Assembly (NCBI GenBank): GCA_000998805.1 | Contig: LCFC01000004.1 | Span: 2,446 to 66,445, forward strand | DNA: 64,000 nt | From: Parcubacteria group bacterium GW2011_GWA2_43_11 | Lineage (GTDB): Bacteria > Patescibacteriota > Minisyncoccia > Phycocordibacterales > UBA12088 | Reading direction: 5' to 3' | Shown here: positions 727 to 50,907 of the stretch, in pieces | Position numbering within the stretch: position 1 is the stretch's first letter | Layout: each line of letters begins with the position of its first letter | Notes under the pieces: model-generated | Databases searched by the model: none | Told to the model about the DNA's origin: nothing | Seen by the model: the letters and a program-made list of their open reading frames with translations, nothing else | Program-made: the position numbers and the translations under genes

Positions 727-1332
727 TTAATAGGTATCTTTAAGATTTCGAATAGAAGCGCTTGAACGCAAAGCAACTTCTGAAGTTTGAAGTCCGAAGC
801 GCGTGGATCCCACTAACTGCACTTCGACACGACGGACCTGAATTGCTTGTGAAGCAGACACTATTTCACTACTTGTGGCGGTAAAGTAGCGAAACAGCGG
901 TGTGCTTGTAGCGGCGGTATGTACGAGGTCTAGAAATGTTTCAGTGTTTGTCGGATAGCTCGATGTGGCAGTTGGTTCTATAACACCTTTTGTAAACGTA
1001 GTACCATTTAAAAAGTATCGTATTCGCTCAACATCACCGTCATAGTCGGTGTCTGAGTACAGTGTCAGTGAGCTCGTGGCGATAGCCACAATAGGAAGTG
1101 CTCCATTTTCAGCATACACTGCTGCACGTACATCGCGCACCACCTCCTGTACTCCTTTCGTTGTCTCAATAACCGCGAGTGCGCGCGAAAGTGTTCTAGC
1201 ATGGGTCGTATAGAGGTTCTGAATGGAACTGAACAGTACGGGCATAACGATGCTAATAATAGCGATTACCACAAGCATTTCCATCAAAGTGTAGCCGTTT
1301 GTGTTGGTGTGTGTTTGAGGTGTGGTACTCAT
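727..1332 (-). CDS. Type IV pilin / pseudopilin with a prepilin-type N-terminal cleavage-methylation motif
   Basis: N-terminus MSTTPQTHTNTNG|YTLMEMLVVIAIISIV: G at -1, E at +5, then a hydrophobic helix (class III signal). Confidence 0.75.
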   Translation of the reverse strand: MSTTPQTHTNTNGYTLMEMLVVIAIISIVMPVLFSSIQNLYTTHARTLSRALAVIETTKGVQEVVRDVRAAVYAENGALPIVAIATSSLTLYSDTDYDGDVERIRYFLNGTTFTKGVIEPTATSSYPTNTETFLDLVHTAATSTPLFRYFTATSSEIVSASQAIQVRRVEVQLVGSTRFGLQTSEVALRSSASIRNLKDTY

Positions 1333-1333
1333 T

Positions 1334-3298
1334 TTAGTATGAAAGGGTTACTGAAGATTCAGTTTGCCCAGAGACTGGAATGGTTGTGGCAAAGGGTGCA
1401 AATCCTGGAGCCTTGATAGATACTGCAAACGAGTCTACGCTTAATGAGGGGAAGTAGGCGATACCGCATGGTCCAGTGGAACGGACTGTATCCACACTGC
1501 CTCCAATAATATGAACTTCAGCTCTTGCGACCGCACTTCCGAGTGGACCAGTTACTTGTAGAGATAGACTGTGTGCAGTCGCAGGTATAAGAGTGAGGGT
1601 TTGCTCGAGGGCGGTATCAGGTTCAAGGACGAGTGGGAGAGAAGGACATGCCTCTGCCACATGGTAGCCTGACACAACAAGCTCGTACGTATCAAATTCC
1701 ATATCTCCTGACTGCCATTCCCCCACTGCATTCGTCTGATTTGCCGTAGTATATTTATAAATAGGATTAGAGGATGCATCGGTACCTATGGTGGTACCAC
1801 TCGTAAGAGTAAAGGGAACATTGGCAACAGGAATTACCGGCTCGTGGTAGGAGAGTGTGTACTCGTGAATTTCTGGAGTTGAAACACTGTCACTACTTGT
1901 AAGGGTAGTGACGATACGCAATGAGGAGTATAGCGTTGTATCAAGCTCGCCTAAATCTATCGGAGACGTTGTAAGACCTGTGCTGTTGTTTGGTATATCA
2001 GTATCAGGTATGAGTGCAAAAACGCCACCACCAGTATCGTACTCTATCTGAAAACTCGCTGAAGTGTTTGGTGGTGTGGTGGCATCGTATGAGAACAAGA
2101 GCCACTCACCAAGTGATGCGGGAGATATGGGAGTAGAAATACTGACACCTGAAGCGCTGTAGCTTCCTGCAACCCCTCCAAGGGTGAGTGCTCCCCCAGC
2201 TACCTGTGTATCAGTGAGCAAGCTCAATTGTGAGGTATCGCTCATGGTATCAAAGAATCGTCCGCGGACTGGCCATAAGCGTGTTAGTAGGTCAATTGAA
2301 GAAAGTAAATCAATCTTAAAGAAAACCTCAGTGATGCTGTTTTCAGCTACGTTGTAGGGTGAAGGTGTTGGATTAGGGTTAGAGCCATCTGAGATATAGG
2401 TTTGTGCACTTGAATAACCATTCTTACTGATATATATCTCGTACCCTCCCCCTGCCCATGCGCCAGGGAAGGAAATAGTTCCACTTGCATTGGTAAATGT
2501 AGAAATATCGACTGATGTAGCAACAGTCGTGTTGAGTAAATGGATTGAAGCTGTAGGTACAGGGTCGTTTGTAGCATCAACAACGTTAATCCGCAGAATT
2601 CCTGCGCCTGCAAGTGATTCTTGAGATTTAGGTGCCATGGTGGTAACTAGAGAAAAAGTCTGAGTGGTTCCACGAAACTCATATCCTATTTCAACCTTTA
2701 CTCGCTTATAGTCAGCAGTGAGGGTGTCAGCTGCTCCTAACCCGTCCGCTGGATCATCGACATATTGGATGAAGGTACGTCGCGTGTATGCGTGGTTACC
2801 ATACGTGATAGTTACCAGTTGCGGTATGGTACCTGAAGGGAGGCCTGCGACTGTACCGATAGAATCAAAAGGAAGGGCTCGAATAACTTCGATGTGTTCA
2901 TTGGCGAGCATGAGTGCATTTGCGCGTAAGCGATTTCGTTCAGCAAAGGTGAGCATGGCTTGAAACGAAGCAAACAAGGTCACAAACACCATTGAGATAA
3001 TTGAAATACCTATAAGCATCTCTACAAGGGATATACCTTTTGTGTTATAGGACTTATGCAAACGGTGTACTACAAGAGCACCACAGGAGTACTTCATTTT
3101 TCTAATTCGTTCCTCATAAGAAAAATTGGTCGCATTACTATTTTTATAGTCGCTACGCTCCTTAAAAATATGTCTTATTTCATCGTTGCTCGTCACAAAA
3201 TGTCTCTCGTAGTATTGTTCATACAGCTCGTTCCATTTTGTTAGAGCACCTCGAACTACACTCGTTTGCGTAAGTCCCATGTTATTTTGTGTGGCCAT
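1334..3298 (-). CDS. Large pilin-like protein with a prepilin motif and a long Thr/Ser-rich C-terminal region. Its 5' end (residues 8–83) is an in-frame MITE insertion.
   Basis: Motif ...YNTKG|ISLVEMLIGISIISMVFVTLF. The ORF stays open from the ATG at 3298 through the element at 3048–3279. An element-internal ATG at 3097 gives a 21-aa leader, MKYSCGALVVHRLHKSYNTKG. Confidence 0.7.
   Translation of the reverse strand: MATQNNMGLTQTSVVRGALTKWNELYEQYYERHFVTSNDEIRHIFKERSDYKNSNATNFSYEERIRKMKYSCGALVVHRLHKSYNTKGISLVEMLIGISIISMVFVTLFASFQAMLTFAERNRLRANALMLANEHIEVIRALPFDSIGTVAGLPSGTIPQLVTITYGNHAYTRRTFIQYVDDPADGLGAADTLTADYKRVKVEIGYEFRGTTQTFSLVTTMAPKSQESLAGAGILRINVVDATNDPVPTASIHLLNTTVATSVDISTFTNASGTISFPGAWAGGGYEIYISKNGYSSAQTYISDGSNPNPTPSPYNVAENSITEVFFKIDLLSSIDLLTRLWPVRGRFFDTMSDTSQLSLLTDTQVAGGALTLGGVAGSYSASGVSISTPISPASLGEWLLFSYDATTPPNTSASFQIEYDTGGGVFALIPDTDIPNNSTGLTTSPIDLGELDTTLYSSLRIVTTLTSSDSVSTPEIHEYTLSYHEPVIPVANVPFTLTSGTTIGTDASSNPIYKYTTANQTNAVGEWQSGDMEFDTYELVVSGYHVAEACPSLPLVLEPDTALEQTLTLIPATAHSLSLQVTGPLGSAVARAEVHIIGGSVDTVRSTGPCGIAYFPSLSVDSFAVSIKAPGFAPFATTIPVSGQTESSVTLSY
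3048..3279. mobile_element. MITE-like element copy A (about 232 bp) with terminal inverted repeats TAGGACTTATGCAAACGG / CGTTTGCGTAAGTCC
   Basis: The terminal inverted repeats are visible directly. Internal segments (ttcatttttctaattc, ataagaaaaattggtcgcat, gtagtattgttcatacagctcgttccattttg) are shared with copies at 8972, 13727 and 24395. Confidence 0.75.
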
Positions 3299-3314
3299 GT
3301 GTTTTGTATGGATA

Positions 3315-4538
3315 CTACTGGATACTCGCGGTGATGCCGTAGATAGGGCTAATCATTGAAACTGCGAAGAAACCTACTGCCGCACCAACAATGAGCATTA
3401 AAAACGGTTCGATAATAGTAGACATGTTTTTTGTCTTCTGATCTACTTCGTTTTCATAAAAAGTTGCTATTTGGTGAAGCATATCGGGTAGAGAACCGGT
3501 TTCTTCGCCGACAGCGATGAGTTCACCGACTAGAGGTGGGTATATTTTTTCTGCCTCAATAAACACTTTGGCAAGTGCTTGACCTTTTTCAACTTCCGTT
3601 TGTGCCGCCAACAAAACATCTTTGTAGTAACTGTTCTGGAGTACGTTTCGGGTAATTTCTATAGATGTGAGCATGTTAACCCCCGATGAGAGAAGTGATG
3701 AAAGGGTACGTCCGGTACGAGCACTGTTTGTTTCTTTCATGATAGTACCTAGTACGGGGATATGGAGAAAGATTGTTTCAAAAGTGCGTTTTCCATACGA
3801 TGTTCGCATAGCTGCCATAAAAAAAGCAACCAAACCAACTAGTGATAGCAGTGCGAGAAGTGTGTGTGCCACCAGGAAGTCGCTTAAAAATATAACCACC
3901 CGTGTACTCATGGGGAGCTCAACTTCCATACTCTTGAATGTTTCAGTGAGTGTTGGAACTATAAAAATCATCATGAGTGTTCCTACGGTTCCAAGCACAA
4001 AGACAATAACAGAAGGATAAATCATTGCACCACGTACTTTTTTCTTCAGTGAGTACACACGGTCTAATTGTTCCGAAATAGTAAGCAAACTTTCCGCAAG
4101 TGTTCCTGCTTCTTCTCCTGAAGCAACCATTGAAACGACGAGATTGGAAAATACCTTTGGATATTTCTCCATTGCACCTGAAAGAGAGCTACCTTGTTGA
4201 ATGGAATTCGAAACACCCTGTAGTACCTCTTTGAGTTTTGGTTTTTTTGTTTGACGCTCAAGTACCGAGAGGGCGCGTGAAAGAGCCAATCCCGCTTTGA
4301 GCATTGCACCGAGATTGCGCGTAAGCATAATCTTATCGTTTTCCTTTATACGAAGAAAAAAAGACAGAAGATTAAATTCAAAAAGAGACGCGTGTTCCTT
4401 AATTTCTTTTATCGTCAGTATTTGTGCATTATCTTTACGCACTACATCATAGACTTTGAAGCGGTCTTTTGCTTCAAGTTTGGCTTCGTACGGCTCACTT
4501 TCACCTTTGCGTAATGCTTTGTATAGGTAGAGTGGCAT
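3315..4538 (-). CDS. pilC: Type IV pilus assembly protein PilC / GspF-family inner-membrane platform protein
   Basis: 407 aa with a GspF-like two-repeat architecture, hydrophobic segments, and the conserved GEETGSL / LIEPFLMLIVGAAVG motifs. Confidence 0.85.
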   Translation of the reverse strand: MPLYLYKALRKGESEPYEAKLEAKDRFKVYDVVRKDNAQILTIKEIKEHASLFEFNLLSFFLRIKENDKIMLTRNLGAMLKAGLALSRALSVLERQTKKPKLKEVLQGVSNSIQQGSSLSGAMEKYPKVFSNLVVSMVASGEEAGTLAESLLTISEQLDRVYSLKKKVRGAMIYPSVIVFVLGTVGTLMMIFIVPTLTETFKSMEVELPMSTRVVIFLSDFLVAHTLLALLSLVGLVAFFMAAMRTSYGKRTFETIFLHIPVLGTIMKETNSARTGRTLSSLLSSGVNMLTSIEITRNVLQNSYYKDVLLAAQTEVEKGQALAKVFIEAEKIYPPLVGELIAVGEETGSLPDMLHQIATFYENEVDQKTKNMSTIIEPFLMLIVGAAVGFFAVSMISPIYGITASIQ

Positions 4539-4542
4539 GGTG

Positions 4543-6327
4543 TTAGTCGCTGATAACGCGCAGTACTTCTTCTATAGTAGTGCCTCCTTGGACTGCTTTA
4601 AAGAATCCATCTTCAGCCATGGTGAGCATACCCTCAGAGCGTGCTTGTGCTTCTATTTTGTCGCTTGATGCCTGTTTGATGATGAGCTCGTTGATAGCAG
4701 ATGAAACCATCAGTACTTCGTTGATAACCATGCGACCTTTGTATCCATCAGGAGCTTCATCACTTGGAAGTGGTTTTGAAAATACCAAATCTTCAATTCC
4801 ATCCGTTTCTTTAATAACATGTTCATCACGAAGTGTTGTAAGTAATTTTTCAAAATCAATAACTTTTTTGAGCGAAACAATTTCTTCTTTTGAAAGTTTG
4901 TAAGATTCTTTTTGCCCATAAAGTCTTCGTACTAGTCGCTGTCCAATAATGACGCGGATAGTGCTTGAAAGTAAGAAAGGTTCAACCCCCATGTCCATAA
5001 GGCGAGGAATAGCTCCCGCGGCACTGTTGGTGTGTAACGTGGAAAGTACTAAGTGTCCCGTGAGAGATGCGTTCACTGCGAGAGATGCGGTCTCACTATC
5101 GCGAATTTCTCCTACCATGATAATGTCAGGGTCTTGGCGCACGAGAGCACGGAGACCCCGGGCAAAGGTAAAATCAATTTCCGGACGAACTTGTGTTTGG
5201 TTGATGCGTGCCATCTGGTACTCGATAGGATCTTCAATGGTAGAAATATTTACATCGGGAATATTTAAGAGATCGAGTATTGTATACAGTGTTGTAGTTT
5301 TTCCAGAACCTGTTGGCCCAGAGGTAAGAATCATACCGGTTGTTTGTTTCATGGCATGATGCAAACGTTCCAGTCCTTCACCATGGAAACCAAGTCCTTC
5401 TAAAGAATAGCCTCCGCCATTTTCTCGAAGGAGACGCATAACGGTTTTTTCTCCGTAGTACGTAGGAAGGAGTGAGACACGAAAGGATACTTTTTCGTTA
5501 TCGACTGCCATTTTGAAGCGACCGTCCTGTGGTAAGCGTTTTTCATCAAGTTTTAGGTTGGAAAGAACTTTGATTCTTGCAGTGATAGAAGCTGCGGTGT
5601 TTTTGGGCAAGGTCATAGCATCATGTAATAAGCCGTCTATCCTATACCGGACTAGAACTTCGTTTTCCATGGGCTCAATGTGGATATCTGATGCATTTTG
5701 AATGATGGCGTGTTTGAGAAGTGCGTTGACTACGCGAACAACAGGTACATCCTCTGCCAATTTCTTTAAGTCAGACTCAGAAACACCATCTTCTTCCTCA
5801 GAGAGTATGCTAATAGAGGCACTCTCGCGCTTGATAAGGTCACCAAATTCGTCTTTGAGTGTTTTTTGATATTGCAGTAGAGCATGTTTGATACTTTCTG
5901 CGTCGGTGAGACGAGGTAGGATTTTTAAGCCGACCTTCTTTTTAATAAATTCAATCGCTTGGAGGTCCTCAACATCAAGCATTGCCACCTCAAGCTCTCG
6001 GTCACTTTTCTTAAAGGCGATAATGTTGTGTGTACGTGCAATCGGTTCTGGAATCATGGAAAGCACTTCAAAGCCGATTTTTTCGTTGGCGAGATTAATG
6101 AACGGGACACCAAGGACGTATGCATGCATACGTCGTAAATCATCTTCGGATATATTGCCTTTTGAAACGAGAATTTCTTCGGGTGTGGTTTTTTTCTCCT
6201 CAGCTTCTTTTTCCGCATTGGTGTAGACAGCGCGTGACACGAGACCCGAGTCAAGAATGAAGTTCTTTAGTTGTGAACTTGATGTTTTCACAAAGTACCA
6301 GCGTTCAGGTAGCACACAGCTCCCCAA
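4543..6327 (-). CDS. pilB: Type IV pilus assembly ATPase PilB (GspE family)
   Basis: 594 aa with an N-terminal GSPII_E_N-like domain, Walker A TSGPTGSGKTTTLY, Asp/His boxes, and a tetracysteine-free C-terminus. The track start is TTG. Confidence 0.85.
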   Translation of the reverse strand: MGSCVLPERWYFVKTSSSQLKNFILDSGLVSRAVYTNAEKEAEEKKTTPEEILVSKGNISEDDLRRMHAYVLGVPFINLANEKIGFEVLSMIPEPIARTHNIIAFKKSDRELEVAMLDVEDLQAIEFIKKKVGLKILPRLTDAESIKHALLQYQKTLKDEFGDLIKRESASISILSEEEDGVSESDLKKLAEDVPVVRVVNALLKHAIIQNASDIHIEPMENEVLVRYRIDGLLHDAMTLPKNTAASITARIKVLSNLKLDEKRLPQDGRFKMAVDNEKVSFRVSLLPTYYGEKTVMRLLRENGGGYSLEGLGFHGEGLERLHHAMKQTTGMILTSGPTGSGKTTTLYTILDLLNIPDVNISTIEDPIEYQMARINQTQVRPEIDFTFARGLRALVRQDPDIIMVGEIRDSETASLAVNASLTGHLVLSTLHTNSAAGAIPRLMDMGVEPFLLSSTIRVIIGQRLVRRLYGQKESYKLSKEEIVSLKKVIDFEKLLTTLRDEHVIKETDGIEDLVFSKPLPSDEAPDGYKGRMVINEVLMVSSAINELIIKQASSDKIEAQARSEGMLTMAEDGFFKAVQGGTTIEEVLRVISD

Positions 6328-7044: not shown

Positions 7045-7078
7045 AGTAGGACGTACACAAAAGGATGCAGTTCTAGAT
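7045..7078. repeat. Truncated MITE-family remnant (left end only) fused to the 5' end of nusA
   Basis: TAGGACgTACaCAAAaGGATGCAGTTCtAG matches the left end of the copies at 18362 and 21964 (…CAAACGGATGCAGTTC…). Confidence 0.5.
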
Positions 7079-8971: not shown

Positions 8972-9092
8972 TAGTATCTACGGAAACGGCGCACCACAGA
9001 AGTATTTCATTTTTCTAATTCTCCGCCTTCGCCAGATGGCGAATGGCAAATCATAAGAAAAATTGGTCGCATCCGTTTGCGTAGATACTATA
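8972..9092. mobile_element. MITE-like element copy B (about 120 bp), terminal inverted repeats TAGTATCTACGGAAACGG / CCGTTTGCGTAGATACTA
   Basis: It starts immediately after the ppa TAG stop and shares an internal core with copy A. Confidence 0.7.
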
Positions 9093-9226: not shown

Positions 9227-10141
9227 ATGAATCAAAAAACTAGTACAGAGTCTGTTCGTTTTGCGCCACTAGCACTAGCACTAGCACTAGCGCTAGCGCT
9301 GCTAGCCTTACTCGGGCTTGTGGCAATTTCTGCACATGCTGAGGTAGATAAAGCTGATGACGCGGGGAGTGCTCAGAAAAAAACGCAACTTGATGATGCA
9401 CGACAAGAGCGGAACATTTTTAGTGAAGTGGATACTAATGAGTCCGAGGAAGTTATGGTTTTGGACGATGTTTCTGATGATTTCCAAAATATGGAGAAAC
9501 GTGAGGAGAAGCAGGTGCTACTCGAAGAACAAAAAACAGCGTTTGCAGAAGACAGGGCAAAACGACTAGATGCGTACAGATCATTTCTTGAGAAAAAGAG
9601 AAATTCGATTACAGTGCGTGCTAAGGAACACCAAGAAGAAAGAAGGTTGAAACAAACTACCTACAGAGCTGCGTTGAGCCTCTCTGCCCAAGTGCGACTC
9701 GGGCAATATGCGGAGCGTATCGTGATACGTATGGACGCTGCGCTTGTTCGACTTGAGCAAATTGCGGAGCGTATTGCAACACGTATTGAAAAAACTGAAG
9801 AAAAAGGAGTAGACCTCACTGATGCAAAAGTGGAGCTTGCTAATGTGCGGATACTTTTAGAAGATGCGCATGAGTACGTGTCTCTCATTGGAGAAGTATC
9901 AACCGAAACACTTACCTCAGAAACACCAAAACAACAAATGCAGGATATCCGTGATGCAGTAGAGCTTGCAAAAGACTGCATTAACTCTATACGGGGAGCT
10001 CTTACCGAGACTGTCAAGCTTATACGTGCAGGAATAGAAAAAGAAACAAGAACTGAAGAAGAAGTGAAAGTGGAGGGTATTGAAGATGACTTGACCACCG
10101 CAACTTCAACTGAGACGGAGACAACAAGTGACACTCAGTAA
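9227..10141 (+). CDS. Secreted or surface coiled-coil protein (signal peptide with an (AL)n stretch), hypothetical
   Basis: N-terminus APLALALALALALLALLGLVAISAHA, then a charged, helical, Glu/Lys/Arg-rich body. Confidence 0.55.
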   Translation: MNQKTSTESVRFAPLALALALALALLALLGLVAISAHAEVDKADDAGSAQKKTQLDDARQERNIFSEVDTNESEEVMVLDDVSDDFQNMEKREEKQVLLEEQKTAFAEDRAKRLDAYRSFLEKKRNSITVRAKEHQEERRLKQTTYRAALSLSAQVRLGQYAERIVIRMDAALVRLEQIAERIATRIEKTEEKGVDLTDAKVELANVRILLEDAHEYVSLIGEVSTETLTSETPKQQMQDIRDAVELAKDCINSIRGALTETVKLIRAGIEKETRTEEEVKVEGIEDDLTTATSTETETTSDTQ

Positions 10142-13726: not shown

Positions 13727-13850
13727 TAGGACTTACGGAAACGGCGCACTTCTTCGTTGTCCTACGCAAAAGGTCACTTGTAGTATTGCTCATACAACTC
13801 GTTCCATTTTGCTTGGACGCCTTGAACTTTATTCGTTTGCGTAAGTCCTA
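13727..13850. mobile_element. MITE-like element copy C (about 124 bp), terminal inverted repeats TAGGACTTACGGAAACGG / CGTTTGCGTAAGTCCTA
   Basis: It follows the rpsG stop as taa-tag-TAGGAC… and shares its internal core with copy A. Confidence 0.75.
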
Positions 13851-18361: not shown

Positions 18362-18486
18362 TTAAGACTTTCGCAAACGGATGCAGTTCTAGGAAAACGA
18401 GCAAAATGGAGTGAGCTGTACAACGTCGTACAGTGAATGACGTTTTGTGAAGTTTGACAACGAAATGCGCCGTTTCCGTAAGTCCA
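18362..18486. mobile_element. MITE-like element copy D (about 125 bp, opposite orientation, degenerate left terminal repeat)
   Basis: …CGCAAACGGATGCAGTTC…AAATGCGCCGTTTCCGTAAGTCC; the internal core matches the copy at 21964. Confidence 0.65.
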
Positions 18487-21757: not shown

Positions 21758-21963
21758 CACGTTTTTAACACGTAACAATCTAAGACTTGGTTGGGACAAG
21801 ACAATCTCCCCTTATTGGCTCGCAACGTAGGGTTGCAACGAGCGTCCACTCTTAGTAAAAGGACCGTATTTATACGGGCCTTTTTGTTTTCATACAAAAT
21901 TTCAGGACTTACTCAAACAGACTGGAGGTTAAAACGTTTCTTGAGAAGAGACGGATTGTGGTT

Positions 21964-22087
21964 TAGGACTTATTCAAACGGATGCAGTTCAAGGAAAACG
22001 AGCAAAATGGAGTGAGCGGTACACGTCGTACCTTGAACGACATTTTGTGAAGTTTGACGCCGAAATGTGCCGTTTAAATAAGTCCTA
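21964..22087. mobile_element. MITE-like element copy E (about 124 bp), terminal inverted repeats TAGGACTTATTCAAACGG / CCGTTTAAATAAGTCCTA. Its last 3 nt (TAG on the minus strand) are the acd stop codon.
   Basis: The acd ORF ends …IMVK-TAG, where the TAG is the terminal TAGGAC of the element. Confidence 0.75.
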
Positions 22088-24217: not shown

Positions 24218-24517
24218 AAGGACTTACGCAAACACGGATGCGACCTAATTTTCAAGGAGCGCAGCGACTATGAAAATGAAAATGCCCTTGTGGTACAGCT
24301 CGACTTGTCCGCCGTAGCTTTTGCAGAGGTGGAAGCAAGTTTTTTTAGAAACTACGCCCCCATACTGAAGTCGTGCACGTTCCCGTATTACGTCAGGACT
24401 TACGCAAACGGATGAAGTTCAAGGCACCCAAGCAAAATAGAGCGAGTTGTATGAACAATACTACGAGAGATATTTTGTGCTGGGCAACGATGAAATACGC
24501 TGTTTGTGTATGTCCTA
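24218..24517. mobile_element. Two adjacent MITE-like copies, F1 at 24218–24394 and F2 at 24395–24517. The end of F2 provides the TAG stop of the downstream 2-oxoacid oxidoreductase beta gene.
   Basis: aAGGACTTACGCAAACacGG… and …CAGGACTTACGCAAACGG…CTGTTTGTGTATGTCCTA. The internal core of F2 matches copy A. Confidence 0.7.
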
Positions 24518-30331: not shown

Positions 30332-32887
30332 ATGAAACAAAAAGAATACTTAGAGTTGGAAAAAAGAACCTTTGAAATTCTCCGTCGGAGAGTCTTAACT
30401 GGTGAGTTTAAGTTTAAAAAAATATTCTTATTTCTCTGTTTTGTTATGGGAGGGTTTGTTTTTGGCGTGGGAGAAGCGAGTGCGGAAGGTATTTATATAA
30501 GTAATGCTGGTGCTGGTGATGGATCTTCTTGTGGCCAAGCTCGTTCTGTTTCATGGTTTAACGCCTCTGCTAATTGGGGTTCTGGGGATAATAAAATCAG
30601 CGATAACGATACCGTTTATTTGTGCGGAACTATAACAAGCAGTTCGTTGAGGATGGTTGCATATGGCTCTGTTGGAAATCCCTATACCATAACCTCAGCT
30701 CCTGGCCAAACAGCTATTATTGATGGTCAAAACATTCTCGATAGGGGAATTTCAGCCTACTCCTCTGGTAGCGGAGAGGTTATACTATCCAACTTAGAAA
30801 TACGCAATATTGCTGGTACTGGTATAGAAGCCAGACCCGGTGTGACAATGAAAATTGATAATGTGACTGTGAGAAACGTTTCTCAAAACTGTATAGGATT
30901 GAGTGGTAATGGTTCGTATGTTAAGAATTCAACTTTAATCGGATGTAAAAACAATGGAATAAATGGTGCCATGTTATCTAATGGACTTATTGATAACAAC
31001 ATCATTACCCTTTCAGGGACATATAATGACGGAATCACATTACACGATGGGACTGGTTCAAACAATGTTATATCAAACAACACTGTTTCTGGGGTAATAG
31101 AAGAAAATGCAATTGATATCCTACCTGGTTATTCCAATACCACTATATTTGGAAATGATCTTAGCGGAGCTACTCTTTATGTTATAGGAAGTGGTGGCGC
31201 AAATACTATTATTTACAGGAATTATATTCATGACTCTGCGAGAGGTGTATATCTAGCTGCTCCAGCGAGTGTGTATTATAACAAGCTAGTCAATTTGTCA
31301 GATGATACCTATGGTTCTGTGGGTGGTACAGGAGGACTCTACTTCACTACTGCTGATTCAAGTTTTGTGTATAACAATACCCTCGTGGAAGGTACTCAGG
31401 CTACAGGTAGAGCTATGGTGTACATAGATTCTGGGGTTGATAATGTGAAACTTAAAAATAATATTTTTGACGAGAATAAATTACAGACGACCATGTATAC
31501 GCTTGATAATCCGTCCATAGGCCTGCAAAGTGATTATAACAATTTCAACACGCCGCATACCAGATTAGTACAGAATGCGTCTACCGTCTATGCGAATCTT
31601 ACTGCCTGGAAAAATGCTGGATATGATGCAAAATCAATGTATGGTGAGCAATTGTTTTCAAATTTTAGTGCTAGGAATTTTAACCTTCTTCCAGGTTCTC
31701 CATTAATAGACGCCGGCACCTCTGTCGGTCTTACTACTGACTTTGCAGGTAATCCCATCTACGGTACTCCTGACATCGGTGCCTACGAATATCAACCCCC
31801 ACACACTATCGGAACTAGTAAAATAGACATTGGAGCTGGAGCAAGAATTTATGGAAACGGAAAATTTCGAGACATAGGAGCAACCAACTCTAATTTAGCT
31901 GATTTAACTATTACCCCTCAAAGCGGAAACTTCCAATCATTTGACACTGACGAAGTCCGTCCTGAATGGCTCGACGTCAAAAACATCACTTGGGAAGCAA
32001 CCACCAAACAATGGACCGAAAGCTCAAATAATTCAACTCTCACCAACACCCTCCACACTGTTGGAGACTTGGAGGCCAATAAATACTACAACGTTAGAGT
32101 AGATGGTACTTTAGGCTTGAAAATAACTGGAACCAACTGCACAGGTGGAATTTGCAAAGCAAACAGTAACGGAAAAATAGCGTTTACCTACACAGGAACA
32201 TACGGGGAGCATACCTTTAGAGTAGAATATGCTTATACTGCTATTCCTATTCCTACCGACACCACCGCTCCATCTGTACCATCTCTCACCGCAACCGCAG
32301 TCTCTTCTTCACAAATCAATCTCTCCTGGACTGCATCGACTGACAACGTCGGAGTAACAGGTTACAAGGTATACCGGAACGGTACATATCTAACAACAAC
32401 AACCTCCACTTCACACAACAGCACCGGTCTCACCGCTTCAACTGCCTACAGCTATCGAGTCTCTGCTGTCGACGCTGCCGGCAATGAATCCAGTCAATCT
32501 GTTGCAAAAAGTGCAACAACGCACGCAGGGACAGTGGAAACTGATGCGACACCACCTGCTGTACCATTGAATCTGATAACATTGGCAGTTTCTTCTTCAC
32601 AAATCAATCTCGCATGGACTGCTTCCACTGACAATGTCGGAGTAACAGGCTACAAGGTATACCGGAACGGTACTTACCTCACAACAACGACCTCCGCTTC
32701 GTATATCAATACCGGTCTCACAGCTTCGACCGCCTACAGTTATCGAGTCTCAGCTATCGACGCAGCAGGGAATGAGTCCAGTCAATCTACAGCGAAAAGT
32801 GCAACAACACAGGCAGGGACAGGAGGAACTGACACGACACCACCTGCGGCACCAACAGGATTTACTGCAGTGAGTGCGTCTGCGTAG
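30332..32887 (+). CDS. Cell-surface protein with a right-handed beta-helix (pectate-lyase-like) domain and tandem fibronectin type III repeats. It stops inside a third repeat.
   Basis: N-terminal TM anchor; NNIITLSGTYNDGITLHDGTGSNNVISNN beta-helix rungs; two Fn3 repeats (…SSSQINLSWTASTDNVGVTGYKVYRNGTYLTTTTS…). Confidence 0.75.
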   Translation: MKQKEYLELEKRTFEILRRRVLTGEFKFKKIFLFLCFVMGGFVFGVGEASAEGIYISNAGAGDGSSCGQARSVSWFNASANWGSGDNKISDNDTVYLCGTITSSSLRMVAYGSVGNPYTITSAPGQTAIIDGQNILDRGISAYSSGSGEVILSNLEIRNIAGTGIEARPGVTMKIDNVTVRNVSQNCIGLSGNGSYVKNSTLIGCKNNGINGAMLSNGLIDNNIITLSGTYNDGITLHDGTGSNNVISNNTVSGVIEENAIDILPGYSNTTIFGNDLSGATLYVIGSGGANTIIYRNYIHDSARGVYLAAPASVYYNKLVNLSDDTYGSVGGTGGLYFTTADSSFVYNNTLVEGTQATGRAMVYIDSGVDNVKLKNNIFDENKLQTTMYTLDNPSIGLQSDYNNFNTPHTRLVQNASTVYANLTAWKNAGYDAKSMYGEQLFSNFSARNFNLLPGSPLIDAGTSVGLTTDFAGNPIYGTPDIGAYEYQPPHTIGTSKIDIGAGARIYGNGKFRDIGATNSNLADLTITPQSGNFQSFDTDEVRPEWLDVKNITWEATTKQWTESSNNSTLTNTLHTVGDLEANKYYNVRVDGTLGLKITGTNCTGGICKANSNGKIAFTYTGTYGEHTFRVEYAYTAIPIPTDTTAPSVPSLTATAVSSSQINLSWTASTDNVGVTGYKVYRNGTYLTTTTSTSHNSTGLTASTAYSYRVSAVDAAGNESSQSVAKSATTHAGTVETDATPPAVPLNLITLAVSSSQINLAWTASTDNVGVTGYKVYRNGTYLTTTTSASYINTGLTASTAYSYRVSAIDAAGNESSQSTAKSATTQAGTGGTDTTPPAAPTGFTAVSASA
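32262..32830 (+). repeat. Tandem direct repeat of approximately 285 nt (2 units about 88% identical, plus the start of a third) encoding the Fn3 repeats
   Basis: Unit 1 at 32262–32546, unit 2 at 32547–32830, partial unit 3 at 32831–32884 ending in TAG. Confidence 0.8.
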
Positions 32888-38964: not shown

Positions 38965-39690
38965 TTAGTCAAGGTTTGCTATTTGTATAGCTTTCAATGT
39001 GTGGAATTTGAGCTGTTCTATTATTTTCTCAGTGAGTACCTCGCAAGGGATATCCCAATGAAGTGTAATGAATTGTCCAGGCTGTAGCATCTCGATGTCA
39101 TATTCAGCCTCAAGCCTACGCACTATCTTTTTTTCTATCGGTGCTCCAAGGAAAAACTTGTTGTTTAGAATCTGAAGTGGTTCATAAAGTAATGTGATGT
39201 TTGGACCACTCACTTCAATGACCTTGCCCCAGCTAATACGGCAGGAATCAATTGCGTTAATGGTTGCACTATCTGGAGAGCCCATTTTTTTTGGCACAGC
39301 AAGAACATGGTAGTTGTGATTGGGAAGAATACCTTTACTGATACGGTCTTCCAAAACTCGAAAAGTTTTTATAGGGAGCTTATCTTTCAGTCGCAAATCA
39401 TCAATAAAGTATTGATGTAGAGTGTTTTTATCCACACCGCTAAGGAGTTCATTGCCTATCCAGTACGCCTCGACGACGCGTGGGTCAAACGGGTCAGGTA
39501 TGTGGTTGCTCCGAGCTATGCGGTCAAGGTACGGGTACAGTGTTTCAAATCCTCGTAGAAGTTTTTGCAGACCAAAGTCGGTAAAGCCGTCGTTGAGGTA
39601 GTCCCAAATTTCTCTGTTTGCATCTGGGCCACAAAAGTGAAGCCTATTTGGCCCAAACGCATAGCGACTACAACGAAGTACTCCGTCCAT
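38965..39690 (-). CDS. Hypothetical protein (241 aa from the ATG at 39690; the ORF is open to a GTG at 39744). Its first 14 codons are duplicated at 41064–41104.
   Basis: MDGVLRCSRYAFGPNRLHFCGPD…. Confidence 0.55.
   Translation of the reverse strand: MDGVLRCSRYAFGPNRLHFCGPDANREIWDYLNDGFTDFGLQKLLRGFETLYPYLDRIARSNHIPDPFDPRVVEAYWIGNELLSGVDKNTLHQYFIDDLRLKDKLPIKTFRVLEDRISKGILPNHNYHVLAVPKKMGSPDSATINAIDSCRISWGKVIEVSGPNITLLYEPLQILNNKFFLGAPIEKKIVRRLEAEYDIEMLQPGQFITLHWDIPCEVLTEKIIEQLKFHTLKAIQIANLD
39650..39690. repeat. 41-bp direct repeat, copy 1 (GGCCCAAACGCATAGCGACTACAACGAAGTACTCCGTCCAT), which is the reverse complement of the first 41 nt of the 38965 gene
   Basis: Identical except for 1 nt to 41064–41104. 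Confidence 0.85.
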
Positions 39691-39753
39691 GATGTGAAGT
39701 ATACACAGTTTACTTAGAGAATGTGCGAACAAAATGACACACACATATTTTTA

Positions 39754-40971
39754 TTATTCAGTTGAACTTAGAATGTGTTGAATTTTTTCCCAACAATCTG
39801 AAGGTGTTGTTACTATCGAATGGATACGTTTTTTAATTATATTGTGTGCGTACTTTCTTTGTTTTGGGGTCAATGGAAGTGTCTTTCTGGTTGATGTTAG
39901 TAACATACTTTTCAATGTAGCAATTTCACCCTCACTATATTTGCCAAAATCAATTTTCTTTAGTTCCTCTTCGCTTAATATTTCTTTTAATCTTTTCCCT
40001 ATCATTAAAATATATCTAATATTTTTTATGGTATTTTCGGTTTCCTGTTGGGATCTTTCTCCTTCAAACTTAATGAGAGAATCATTAACAACTATTTCTA
40101 AAGTTGATTTTGCAGGAACATTGAAATCGCTACAGTATTTTTCAAAATCACGGGCAAGAGTATTACGTATATACGTATTAATTCGAAGTAATCTATTTTC
40201 TGTTATTTTTTTCTCACCTTTTTCGTATGAGCCATTATCAATATTTTTTATAATCTCAGAGATGTCAGCCCATGCATCTTTCCCCTGTTGATCAGACCGT
40301 AAGGCTTCTACATAATCCTTTTCTTCCAAAAGGATTTTTGTTGGATCATCTTCACACTTTTTTATTCTATCGTGAATTATGAGAACTTCTTCTTTTGAGA
40401 GCTTATCTATATTGAAACCAGGTAGTATAGAAGTGATGTATTCTATTTGTTCACGAGCATCCTCCATTCCTTCAACATCTTCTTCCAATAAACGTAGTGA
40501 TGTAAAAGATAGGTTAGAAAAAGTTTCATATCGATTTGAAATATCGGCTTCACTAAGTTTGTTTTCATAGTAGTCTCTCATTACTATTTCTTTAGGCATT
40601 TCGCCTTGTTGTTCACTCGCTTCTATAGTTGCGTCGCCTTGATCTTTTTGAAGTTCTTCGGTGTCACCGTTTTCAGCTTGAGAATCATTGGTACTAAAAA
40701 GATCTTTTTGAGCTTCAAGAGAAAGAATATTTCCTGATAAAGTGTGAATTTTATTGATATCCTTGTTTATAAACGCGTCGTCAAGTAGTTCTTTCGTGTA
40801 CGATATTCTGTCTTCAAGTAGCTCGCACACTTGTTCATTTGTTAAATCTAGTCGCAAACTATTCTCTTTTTCGCTATAGACGTACGAAGCATTTCTGCGT
40901 AGTAGTTCGGCGTCCGACAACACTCTTTCTCTTTGCATATCAACAATTTCCTGTATTTTTTCACCTTCCAT
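39754..40971 (-). CDS. Acidic, predicted alpha-helical hypothetical protein (405 aa) in an AT-rich cassette
   Basis: No TM helix and no recognised motif. Local GC is well below that of the flanks. Confidence 0.55.
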   Translation of the reverse strand: MEGEKIQEIVDMQRERVLSDAELLRRNASYVYSEKENSLRLDLTNEQVCELLEDRISYTKELLDDAFINKDINKIHTLSGNILSLEAQKDLFSTNDSQAENGDTEELQKDQGDATIEASEQQGEMPKEIVMRDYYENKLSEADISNRYETFSNLSFTSLRLLEEDVEGMEDAREQIEYITSILPGFNIDKLSKEEVLIIHDRIKKCEDDPTKILLEEKDYVEALRSDQQGKDAWADISEIIKNIDNGSYEKGEKKITENRLLRINTYIRNTLARDFEKYCSDFNVPAKSTLEIVVNDSLIKFEGERSQQETENTIKNIRYILMIGKRLKEILSEEELKKIDFGKYSEGEIATLKSMLLTSTRKTLPLTPKQRKYAHNIIKKRIHSIVTTPSDCWEKIQHILSSTE

Positions 40972-41063: not shown

Positions 41064-41104
41064 GGCCCAAACGCATAGCGACTACAACGAAGTATTCCGT
41101 CCAT
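41064..41104. repeat. 41-bp direct repeat, copy 2, located 3 nt downstream of the transporter stop. It starts a 41-codon remnant ORF (MDGILRCSRYAFGPTSYKYPLL…).
   Basis: One mismatch relative to 39650–39690. Confidence 0.85.
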
Positions 41105-46557: not shown

Positions 46558-46737
46558 GAGAGTTAGTGTGCGGCCTGCCCTGTACCGAGCTTACCCCGTA
46601 TTTCCTGTGTATAGTGTTTGGGTACAATACTTTCTGAAAAAAATAAAGGTTTTATTGCGTTACGTAGCAAAAAAACCTTTTAAGTTTTGTTTACGTAATA
46701 AATACATAAAAACAATAAAATACGCTATTTTTCGCAG

Positions 46738-46905
46738 GGTTGACCCGGTAGTGAAAATTGACGATGCATTTCATGCGCTACATCTAGAGGATTTAGCCTC
46801 GTCAATTTCTACTACCGGGTTGACCCTGTAGTAGAAGTTTACGATGCATTTCATGCGCTCAACCCTTGGTTTGAGCCTCGTAAACTTTCACTACAGGGTT
46901 GACTT
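46738..46905. repeat. Two tandem approximately 70-nt hairpin units (arms GGTAGTGAAAATTGACGA / TCGTCAATTTCTACTACC), each followed by GGGTTGAC
   Basis: Unit 1 at 46747–46816, unit 2 at 46826–46896; a third copy is at 50560–50628. Confidence 0.7.
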
Positions 46906-47247
46906 CGGTGTGACTTGCGGTAGTATTCCTTTACCGCATCTGCGCGTATTTTTTTCTGTGATATGCGGAGGCTCTTTGTATGTCTCCAATGCCTGAGAAA
47001 GGTATACGTAATGAGGTTTTATTAAATGTTGTTAGAGCTGGCATAAATTCGTTTCTGGGTTTGTAAAAACGAAAATAAGAAAATTTGGAGCATACCGTAG
47101 TTTTGTTTTCAAAAATTTATTTTCCTCTTGCTTTCACAGTAACGTTCGTGTCTGACTTATAACAATTCAGAGCACCCTTTCGAAGTTGAGGCCAAGTTCT
47201 CGCGCCTTCACCTTCGCAAGGAAGCTCAACACTTAACATTAAGTATT

Positions 47248-50299: not shown

Positions 50300-50559
50300 T
50301 AACGAATTGCTGAAGTGAAGTGCGTCAGATTATCTTCTATCCACCTAACACAGTTTTTCCCTAAGGTGATAGGGTGGTCTGGCATACTCAGACGTTCAGT
50401 GTTTGATAAAAAATCGAGGCCAACAACCTTCGCTTTCGCTACTAGCAGCCTCCTTCTCTGATTCGCGGGCACCCACTTCAGCAATATGAAGTACATGTTT
50501 GTTACTAAACCTAGAGTATCAGAACATTTTTGTAAGTCAATTTATTGGTGTGTCATACC

Positions 50560-50628
50560 CAGTAGTGAAAATTGACGAAGCTCGACCTGTGGTCGAGCGC
50601 ACAAAGTGCATCGTCAATTTCTACTACG
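50560..50628. repeat. Third copy of the approximately 70-nt hairpin repeat (AGTAGTGAAAATTGACGA…TCGTCAATTTCTACTAC) with a different internal loop
   Basis: Arms identical to the units at 46747 and 46826; the loop has its own sub-hairpin CTCGACCTGTGGTCGAG. Confidence 0.7.
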
Positions 50629-50879
50629 GGGTTGCATTTTTTAACCCATTCCTGTATAGTACCGAGGCTAATAGAAGTATCGTAAGGTACTAGCCATGTT
50701 CCACCGACAGCAATGATAGGGAACCTCTGGACCGTAAGCCTCACTGGCTAGTGGTTCAGTGTAGGCCTTTTTTGTTAGCAAGGTCTTTAAAAACAGCGCA
50801 CTTCATCGTTGTGCTGCACAAAATACTTCTCATCGTATAATTTAATACGACTCGCAGTATTTTGTTTGCACGCCTCGAA

Positions 50880-50907
50880 TTGCATCTGTTTTTATACGCC
50901 CTACAGT
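50880..50907 (+). promoter_or_regulatory. Candidate sigma70-type promoter for rplC (TTGCAT-16-TACAGT)
   Basis: Hexamers visible directly. Confidence 0.35.

Follow-up and report, generated by a model that had tools for sequence, protein, structure and literature searches.

A putative MITE-like palindromic element lying in frame within the prepilin leader of a Parcubacteria pilin-like gene

Small palindromic repeats that lie in frame within genes are well established in bacteria, with examples among the Rickettsia palindromic elements (RPEs), intragenic ERIC copies, the QMITEs of Coxiella and the miniature transposable elements with inverted repeats (MITEs) of cyanobacteria (PMC10969869; PMC5896051). 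RPEs (Ogata et al., 2000, 2002) are outlined in PMC10969869 as short palindromic repeats in frame inside protein-coding genes, the same overview refers to intragenic copies of ERIC (Delihas, 2007, cited in PMC10969869), and QMITE2 of Coxiella extends the enhC gene in frame (PMC5896051). The leaders of type IV pilins, for their part, are cytoplasmic peptides that are cleaved after a conserved Gly at the cytoplasmic face, with documented lengths of 6-26 residues (Berry and Pelicic, 2015, PMC4471445). Here, we describe a locus where the two subjects meet. In a 64,000-nucleotide stretch of the genome of Parcubacteria group bacterium GW2011_GWA2_43_11 (contig LCFC01000004.1, positions 2,446 to 66,445; hereafter the window), the leader of a large pilin-like gene contains, in frame, a palindromic repeat of 228 bp with the features of a mobile element. 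The genomes of the candidate phyla radiation (CPR), or Patescibacteria, to which this bacterium belongs, are very small, and mobile DNA is usually said to be scarce in them. In-frame genic insertion is in itself already known from the systems above; noteworthy here is the location, in cleavable targeting peptides.

The pilin-like open reading frame (ORF) comprises 654 codons (1334..3298, minus strand), follows pilB and pilC, and starts at ATG 3298-3296. As the initial annotation had read it, the ORF begins with MATQNNM, passes stop-free through the repeat and resumes in frame with TAT AAC ACA AAA GGT (3049-3035, YNTKG) and then ISLVEMLIG, all of which is present in the sequence. The ancestral start and the seven leader codons MATQNNM (3278..3298, minus) align with empty alleles of the same gene in L009 and L006, and a second ATG, at 3280-3278, immediately adjoins the element. 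The five codons YNTKG (3035..3049, minus) end the leader, with cleavage predicted after the Gly (GGT, 3037-3035), and the mature pilin-like protein of 566 residues (1334..3034, minus) starts with ISLVEMLIGISIISMVFVTLFASF and carries CarboxypepD_reg domains. It displays a class III signal motif: Gly stands at -1, Glu occupies +5 and the N-terminal helix, of ~21 residues, is hydrophobic; this Gly/Glu motif is kept among 120 homologues. Residues 85-108 of the ORF score 19.0-19.2 bits against Pfam N_methyl (PF07963; cut-off 21.2), and the ORF scores 10.5 bits against TIGR02532 (cut-off 16.3); PF07963 is present in several homologues, and the neighbouring minor pilin exceeds the cut-off (27 bits). 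The 120 closest homologues, 'PulG/PilV-like' proteins from Parcubacteria/Paceibacteria, have lengths of 560-600 residues and leaders of 7-15 residues, and only two of them have long leaders.

The inserted element (3050..3277, minus) was delimited by repeat searches, nhmmer, its hairpin and the empty orthologous sites. Inverted repeats GGACTTACGCAAACG form the ends of the element, which lies after codon 7 and ahead of the YNTKG|ISLVEM cleavage motif. It measures 228 bp, or 76 codons, between these repeats, so that the in-frame insertion first proposed stands, with its size corrected from 232 bp and 77 codons. Motif searches locate the left terminal inverted repeat GGACTTACGCAAACGA at 3262..3277 (minus) and the right one, GGACTTATGCAAACGG in plus-strand reading, at 3050..3065. 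Between them, the copy has the composition of a 'long' subfamily: a type-1 body (3168..3277, minus), which corresponds to positions 1-110 of the 120-bp family model (nhmmer, built from four window copies) and is 84% identical to 24396-24497; a partial extra core ATATTTTTAAGGAGCGTAGCGACTATAAAAATAG (3138..3171, minus), which resembles the core of 24220-24290 and occurs in the pilin copy only; a complete nested core GCGACCAATTTTTCTTATGAGGAACGAATTAGAAAAATGAAGTACTCCTGTGGTGC (3078..3133, minus), which holds an internal ATG at 3097-3095; and the right repeat. The partial extra core sets the downstream core in the same reading frame as the type-1 body. In the pilin frame the element translates without a stop as GLTQTSVVRGALTKWNELYEQYYERHFVTSNDEIRHIFKERSDYKNSNATNFSYEERIRKMKYSCGALVVHRLHKS, and the translated insert contains WNELYEQYYER, HFVTSNDEIR, SDYKNSNATNFSYEER and YSCGALVVHR. 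As a whole, the element is predicted to fold into a hairpin of -73.6 kcal/mol (z = -4.0).

The leader has both empty and filled alleles. In the syntenic orthologue of L009 (88% protein identity), the pilC stop TAG is followed after 18 nt by ATG ACC ACA CAA AAT AAA GGT ATG TCC, or MTTQNKG|MS, in the cleavage context MTTQNKG|MSLVEM, while the orthologues of L006 and L131 (89-94% identity) read MVTQNKG|ISLVEM. These are the empty sites that the initial annotation had proposed to look for, and together with the inverted repeats and the other family copies they bear out its view of a mobile inverted-repeat element placed in frame inside a prepilin leader. Compared with the empty allele, the window is longer by 243 nt (81 codons): besides the 228-bp element, these comprise CATG to the left and TATAACACAAA to the right of it. 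ATAACA and ACACAAAA are found near both ends of the copy. In one reading, the pre-insertion leader was MATQNNTKG, with a 7-bp duplication ATAACAT/ATAACAC (ATAACAY) around a 230-bp element; in another, it was MATQNNMYNTKG, with no duplication. A separate filled allele is found in the orthologue of a more distant lineage, L012-L014 (82% identity, three assemblies), where a different hairpin element, common to the pilin copy only in the core, occupies the same leader (MSYKVTT...REIKMEMTLCHK...STVQG|ISLVEML). This insertion (fold z = -5.2) adds 73 codons, a net 219 nt, and is open and in phase from the ancestral ATG. A metagenome scan with the mature pilin covered 21 loci and returned no additional insertion alleles. 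A 1.3-kb contig (L130:653-892) matches the pilin 5′ region with full identity as far as the element core, beyond which it runs into an unrelated gene; it is probably an assembly chimera or a recombinant between copies, and is uninformative.

Checking every copy of the family for a spanning ORF brought out in-frame copies in a second gene, encoding a Sec-type exported protein with the N-terminus MEMLFSY.... In L027 (genome GW2011_GWD2_42_14; gene L027:2638-4191, minus), a 120-bp copy (L027:3997-4116) lies between MEMLFSYLREGK and YKYNIGRACTVFLCC... in the n-region of the signal peptide and contains no in-frame ATG. At this site, L152 (3001-4605) carries a long-form copy of 207 bp, and L153 (596-2032) has an empty site, EGKSYKY, that holds TAAGTCCTA, identical to the end of the element. 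In L154 (1501-3093), from a lineage of 52% identity, a 195-bp GC-rich element with the same termini directly follows the start codon and is flanked by a perfect 7-nt direct repeat, TATGCTG.

All five genic alleles, two in the pilin gene and three in the second gene, are stop-free, in phase with the ancestral ATG and a multiple of three in length (elements of 228, 120, 207 and 195 nt, and the net insertion of 219 nt in L012). Other long copies (176, 215 and 227 nt) contain at least two stops in every forward frame, against none in the pilin frame of the 228-nt pilin copy. When the 180 nt upstream of the internal ATG are shuffled, they remain open in 0.7% of cases (P = 0.007), to be multiplied by 1/3 for phase, and the corresponding probability for the L012 insertion is 0.08, again times 1/3. 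Multiplied over the five alleles (shuffle P of 0.007-0.19, each times 1/3 for phase), the probabilities give a joint chance of the order of 1e-8, or 1e-6 without the window case. Given this joint chance, continuity with the ancestral ATG would appear to be under selection and the elements translated, and we infer that in the window, too, translation proceeds through the element from the ancestral ATG. The remainder of the gene is well preserved. In four lineages (window, L006, L009, L012), the 566 codons of the mature part align with zero indels, pairwise ratios of nonsynonymous to synonymous substitution (dN/dS) are 0.06-0.09, and the window branch has the lowest ω of the three branches estimated (0.06). 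The mature pilin is under strong purifying selection and the gene is not decaying.

The reading that we favour, with some confidence, is that translation runs through the element, which thereby forms part of a cytoplasmic leader of 88 residues that prepilin peptidase then removes, making the insertion nearly neutral. In this scheme, a MITE-like palindromic element inserted into the seven-codon leader of the large pilin-like gene, and the copy that survived is one whose length is a multiple of three and which lacks a stop in the pilin frame. Ribosomes would initiate at ATG 3298 (or 3280), just past the pilC stop TAG (3317-3315, 16 nt before the pilin ATG), melt the hairpin and translate across it. 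The product would be a prepilin with a net-positive cytoplasmic leader of 88 residues, or 82 from the second ATG, which prepilin peptidase would cut after the conserved Gly to leave the mature 566-residue protein unaltered. Since such a leader stays in the cytoplasm, is cut off and leaves the mature protein unchanged, the insertion would be nearly neutral; the leader would be a tolerant site because an N-terminal extension there need not cross the membrane and is absent from the mature protein. Near-neutrality would in turn account for the persistence of the element and for the presence of a related one at this position in another lineage, and the same tolerance could hold for a cleaved Sec signal peptide in its n-region, as in the second gene. 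The insertion, the element family, the covariation of the hairpin, the empty sites, the kept frame of the five genic alleles and the purifying selection on the mature part are observed; use of the ancestral ATG, continued cleavage of the long leader and near-neutrality are inferred.

Several observations weigh against this account. The window case was flagged for being in frame in the first place, which is an ascertainment bias. Of 14 copies of the short element, only three have an open frame 0, which makes the pilin copy unusual; this agrees with selection, but a lucky founder would look no different. In L154, the 7-nt duplication restores the original ATG downstream of the element and read-through is not needed there. 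For the gene of L027, the start given in the NCBI annotation is a TTG that lies downstream of the element (P0126). A leader of 88 residues is far beyond the documented 6-26, and prepilin peptidase and the signal recognition particle/Sec pathway might not tolerate it. The internal ATG is about equally accessible and gives an ordinary leader of 21 residues. Finally, the inverted repeats do not enclose all 243 extra nucleotides, and the 15 beyond them have no clean explanation.

The internal ATG is the basis of the main competing explanation, in which the functional prepilin starts at ATG 3097 with the element-encoded 21-residue leader MKYSCGALVVHRLHKSYNTKG, and the upstream ORF is irrelevant or serves coupling only. 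The initial annotation had put forward this start and leader, and both are present as described; the ATG is also element-derived, as it had stated, being part of a conserved core module and appearing in copy B of the family as ATG AAA TAC TTC TGT GGT GCG CCG (MKYFCGAP). That this start is the one in use we consider unlikely, although it may serve alone or alongside the ancestral one. It is in frame, its leader has a net charge of +4 (compared with +5 for the 88-residue leader) and falls inside the known range of lengths, the core module bearing it is conserved in other long copies, and a gene caller picked the homologous internal ATG in the L012 allele (P0004, MEMTLCHK...). The pilin family as a whole is called from three kinds of start (P0001, P0003, P0004). 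Predicted opening energies are 4.1 kcal/mol for ATG 3298 (M1), 3.7 for ATG 3280 (M7) and 4.8 for ATG 3097 (M68), compared with medians of 5.1 for real starts and 7.4 for random ATG triplets; the ancestral ATG is predicted to be unpaired in the mRNA fold, and mRNA accessibility does not separate the candidates. A Shine-Dalgarno (SD)-like GAGGA precedes ATG 3097 by 13 nt. Such a motif occurs upstream of only 3 of 41 long ORFs in the window, where start regions are A/T-rich and predicted to be unstructured, and the organism's translation initiation appears to be largely SD-independent; the GAGGA therefore carries no weight. In other copies, the core ATG reaches a stop after 10-16 codons (that of copy B, at 9010-9008, yields only MKYFCGAPFP), and because of these early stops it looks like a by-product of the palindrome. 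Moreover, an internal start does not predict that the 60 element codons upstream of it should be stop-free and in phase, nor that the L012 insertion should be, and the L027 allele is in phase though it has no internal in-frame ATG.

A role at the RNA level is compatible with translation through the element and is not exclusive of it. Here, the hairpin of ~230 nt would act within the pilC-pilin transcript as a processing site (e.g. for RNase III) or as a translational brake, the large minor pilin would be lowered or uncoupled relative to pilB/pilC, and the open frame would be secondary. The predicted hairpin is very stable and its stem is upheld by compensatory changes across copies, and Correia and ERIC elements undergo processing or influence mRNA stability. 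However, a consensus scan of 2800-3500 yielded no promoter-like or terminator-like sequence, copies lie in both orientations to their flanking genes, which argues against a strand-specific RNA role, and frame preservation in all five genic copies is left unexplained, so we regard this account as improbable. Less probable again is that the pilin gene has been knocked out or is becoming a pseudogene, its open frame being a chance outcome of an insertion that happened recently. A leader with four times the length of any characterised one might block processing, and the insertion is limited to one lineage, but the selective record of the mature codons, which have neither indel nor stop in four lineages, contradicts decay, the independent L012 allele is likewise intact, and with only 84% identity to its nearest relative in the window the element shows no clear sign of being very recent. 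It is scarcely credible that the junction is an assembly artefact in which a dispersed repeat was misthreaded into the pilin gene. The element is indeed a dispersed repeat, and contig L130, which shares the left part and diverges inside the core, indicates that repeat-induced chimeras or recombinants occur. Nevertheless, the junctions, the whole gene and 42 nt upstream (2007 nt) are identical in five assemblies, on contigs of 13.9-54.9 kb from different samples and assemblers, the internal structure of the pilin copy is found nowhere else among the copies compared, and the L012 allele is likewise present in three assemblies. The assemblies apparently derive from the Rifle aquifer (PRJNA268031). 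Weighing all of these, we retain translation from the ancestral ATG, followed by removal of the leader, as the preferred account, and the element-supplied start as one that we do not prefer.

The pilin copy belongs to a family with at least six full and three to four partial copies in the window, a density of about one per 8-10 kb, and its terminal motif occurs there 13 times against 1.8 expected. With nhmmer, full 120-bp copies are found at four places in the window: 13729..13848 (120 bp, minus), between rpsG and fusA; 18365..18485 (plus); 21966..22085 (plus), with a solo terminal repeat at 21905-21920; and 24396..24515 (plus), with a core-type partial copy at 24220-24290. These are all intergenic, as are copy B (8973..9089, minus), in which short inverted repeats AGTATCTACGCAAACGG surround a core module, and a diverged copy upstream of rplC (50789..50896, minus). 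A 28-bp remnant (7049..7076, plus) is what is left of a copy that contigs L001-L005, otherwise 99.9% identical, carry in full. Compared with L001:5367-5484, the window has a 118-bp deletion that removes most of a family copy just after nusA, and element copies are thus polymorphic within the population. Further copies lie in L001, L006, L009, L027, L053, L039 and L083, and a family copy was also found in L152; the genomes concerned include Parcubacteria GW2011_GWD2_42_14 and binchicken_co245_132. Scanning a genome collection for the 16-nt terminal motif gave mostly chance matches, the real ones being in GW2011_GWD2_42_14 and in one metagenome-assembled genome labelled 'Saccharibacteria'. A full-text literature search returned no paper describing MITEs in CPR bacteria, and the family is apparently undescribed, belonging to Parcubacteria and, as far as seen, to a small clade of them.

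Elements of the family are either short (120 bp) or long (176-228 bp), contain only short incidental ORFs and form an imperfect palindrome across their full length; 14 short copies were aligned. In a 13-copy alignment, 42 pairs are formed with 94.9% of cells paired (33-44% in slid controls), and two-sided, compensatory changes affect 14 of the 42 pairs, a number reached by none of 500 shuffles. In the long subfamily, a core of ~55-90 nt, GCGACCAATTTTTCTTATGAG...GAATTAGAAAAATGAAGTACTCC..GTGGTGCGC, is nested just before the right repeat, an architecture also seen at L009:18825-18990, L027:5556-5740 and L006:15160-15400. The core module of the pilin copy itself (3078-3133) recurs in copy B and at L009:18918-18980, L027:5652-5708 and L006:15193-15251. 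The elements encode a recurring peptide, GLTQTD..KWNELYEQYYERHFV.... Judged by these sequence features, the element is non-autonomous, MITE-like and palindromic throughout.

Copies lie either way relative to neighbouring genes and are mostly intergenic, directly after stop codons; in a census of ~200 kb, about 20 of the 25 copies examined were intergenic and about five genic. Upstream of ppa, there is an insertion polymorphism, with the site filled in L009 and empty in the window. Most copies are flanked by TA...TA and the genic ones have direct repeats of 6-8 nt, and no single rule of target-site duplication fits all of the copies compared. No pair of terminal repeats ~1-2 kb apart, as an autonomous insertion sequence (IS) would give, was found in the window, nor was a transposase among the 20 window ORFs scanned. 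Comparison by blastn with phage and plasmid collections and exact scans of viral contigs gave no matches, and a search with the 81-residue insert peptide recovered only five short incidental ORFs (one of them P0121/L130) and no other large protein. Rfam, searched across the whole window, returned nothing at gathering thresholds, with two chance-level hits at permissive E-values (in 2950-3400), and these empty searches rule out a known RNA family, intron or riboswitch as the identity of the element.

Two further observations concern repeats and ppa. The gap between ppa and the gene downstream of it holds a core-only copy in the window (8973-9089) and a type-1 copy in L009 (3905-4010), a pattern that suggests reuse of a hot spot or replacement of the element in place. 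Also in L009 (4041-4628, minus), the called start of the pyrophosphatase gene ppa (195 aa) lies inside an element copy. Since the conserved MNLWHD start follows, this long N-terminus was set aside as a gene-calling artefact. A second hairpin repeat family appears to be present as well, with ~80-nt units bounded by GGGTTGACCC at 46737-46910 and 50551-50593 in the window, where two tandem units lie upstream of tuf and a third, weaker copy is found.

The neighbourhood of the gene is that of a type IV pilus cluster. A pilB-type T2SSE ATPase gene (4543-6327, minus), recognised from the ORF list and Pfam, stands directly upstream of a pilC/gspF-type platform gene (3315..4538, minus), for which Pfam T2SSF was matched on the identical gene of contig L001. 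After the large pilin-like gene comes a further minor pilin gene (727..1332, minus; MSTTPQTHTNTNG|YTLMEML), which scores 27.1 bits against N_methyl and 27.4 bits against TIGR02532. No prepilin peptidase gene was identified in the 64-kb window. In L006 (4805-7600; GW2011_GWD2_42_14 lineage), pilC is separated from the large pilin-like gene by four extra genes, of which three are small and pilin-like and one encodes 436 aa. Neither the window nor L009 has them, so the content of the pilus operon differs among close relatives.

Elsewhere in the window, a 41-nt direct repeat (98% identical; 39650-39690 and 41064-41104) brackets a 405-codon ORF with no Pfam match (39754-40971) and equals the 5′ end (MDGVLRCSRYAFG) of a DUF6390 gene (38965-39744); this ORF may be a gene insertion with a duplicated target. 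A tandem repeat of 2 x 270 nt (85% identical, 32297-32854) lies within the gene of an 851-residue fn3/beta-helix protein (30332-32887), and another of 2 x 52 nt (54-nt period, 9684-9789) within an unannotated ORF (9227-10141).

A dense family of hairpin repeats in an uncultured groundwater CPR bacterium adds mobile DNA to minimal genomes, and such elements mislead the calling of start codons. Residence in peptides that are removed anyway offers a simple account of how selfish DNA could be carried in coding sequence at almost no cost, and an 88-residue leader, if it is indeed processed, would stretch the accepted substrate range of prepilin peptidase. It is tempting, if as yet rather doubtful, to generalise that cleavable targeting peptides, both prepilin leaders and Sec n-regions, may, in ultra-small CPR genomes, repeatedly serve as 'safe harbours' to a palindromic family compatible with coding, with the element translated. 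Were that so, the window would hold by far the longest class III leader known, and a cytoplasmic peptide of 87 residues, encoded by the element, would be released. Leader length would then vary through insertions and through the footprints left by excision, of which the extra Ser-Tyr in L153 would be an example, with possible control over the expression of surface proteins.

Among described systems, RPEs offer a close parallel, being likewise short palindromes (~100-150 bp) that lie in frame and stop-free in genes of reduced genomes, encode a recurring peptide and leave the host protein functional. Unlike RPEs, which were compared by description only, the present family has its host in a different phylum, most of its copies are intergenic, and the genic ones lie in N-terminal targeting peptides that are removed and not in the bodies of enzymes. 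With ERIC, or intergenic repeat units, it shares an imperfect whole-length palindrome of ~120-127 bp, a mostly intergenic location in transcribed regions, longer variants that arise from insertions at fixed internal positions (here, the core before the right repeat) and occasional ORFs or in-frame fusions, while sequence and host differ. We know of no ERIC copy reported within a cleaved leader peptide. As in the Correia/NEMIS elements of Neisseria and bacterial MITEs, the elements are small and multi-copy, have terminal inverted repeats and no transposase and show presence/absence polymorphism, and TA flanks most copies, as for Correia elements; in contrast to these, the genic copies here have direct repeats of 6-8 nt and no one duplication rule covers all copies, no cognate IS was found in the window and no promoter-like consensus was detected in the pilin copy. 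The host peptide, finally, resembles the class III signal peptides of type IV pilins in its terminal Gly, its Glu at +5, its hydrophobic stretch of ~21 residues, its place in a pilB-pilC-pilin cluster and a leader predicted to be cytoplasmic and net positive. It departs from the documented ones, of 6-26 residues, in that, read from the ancestral ATG, it would extend over 88 residues, 76 of them encoded by the mobile element.

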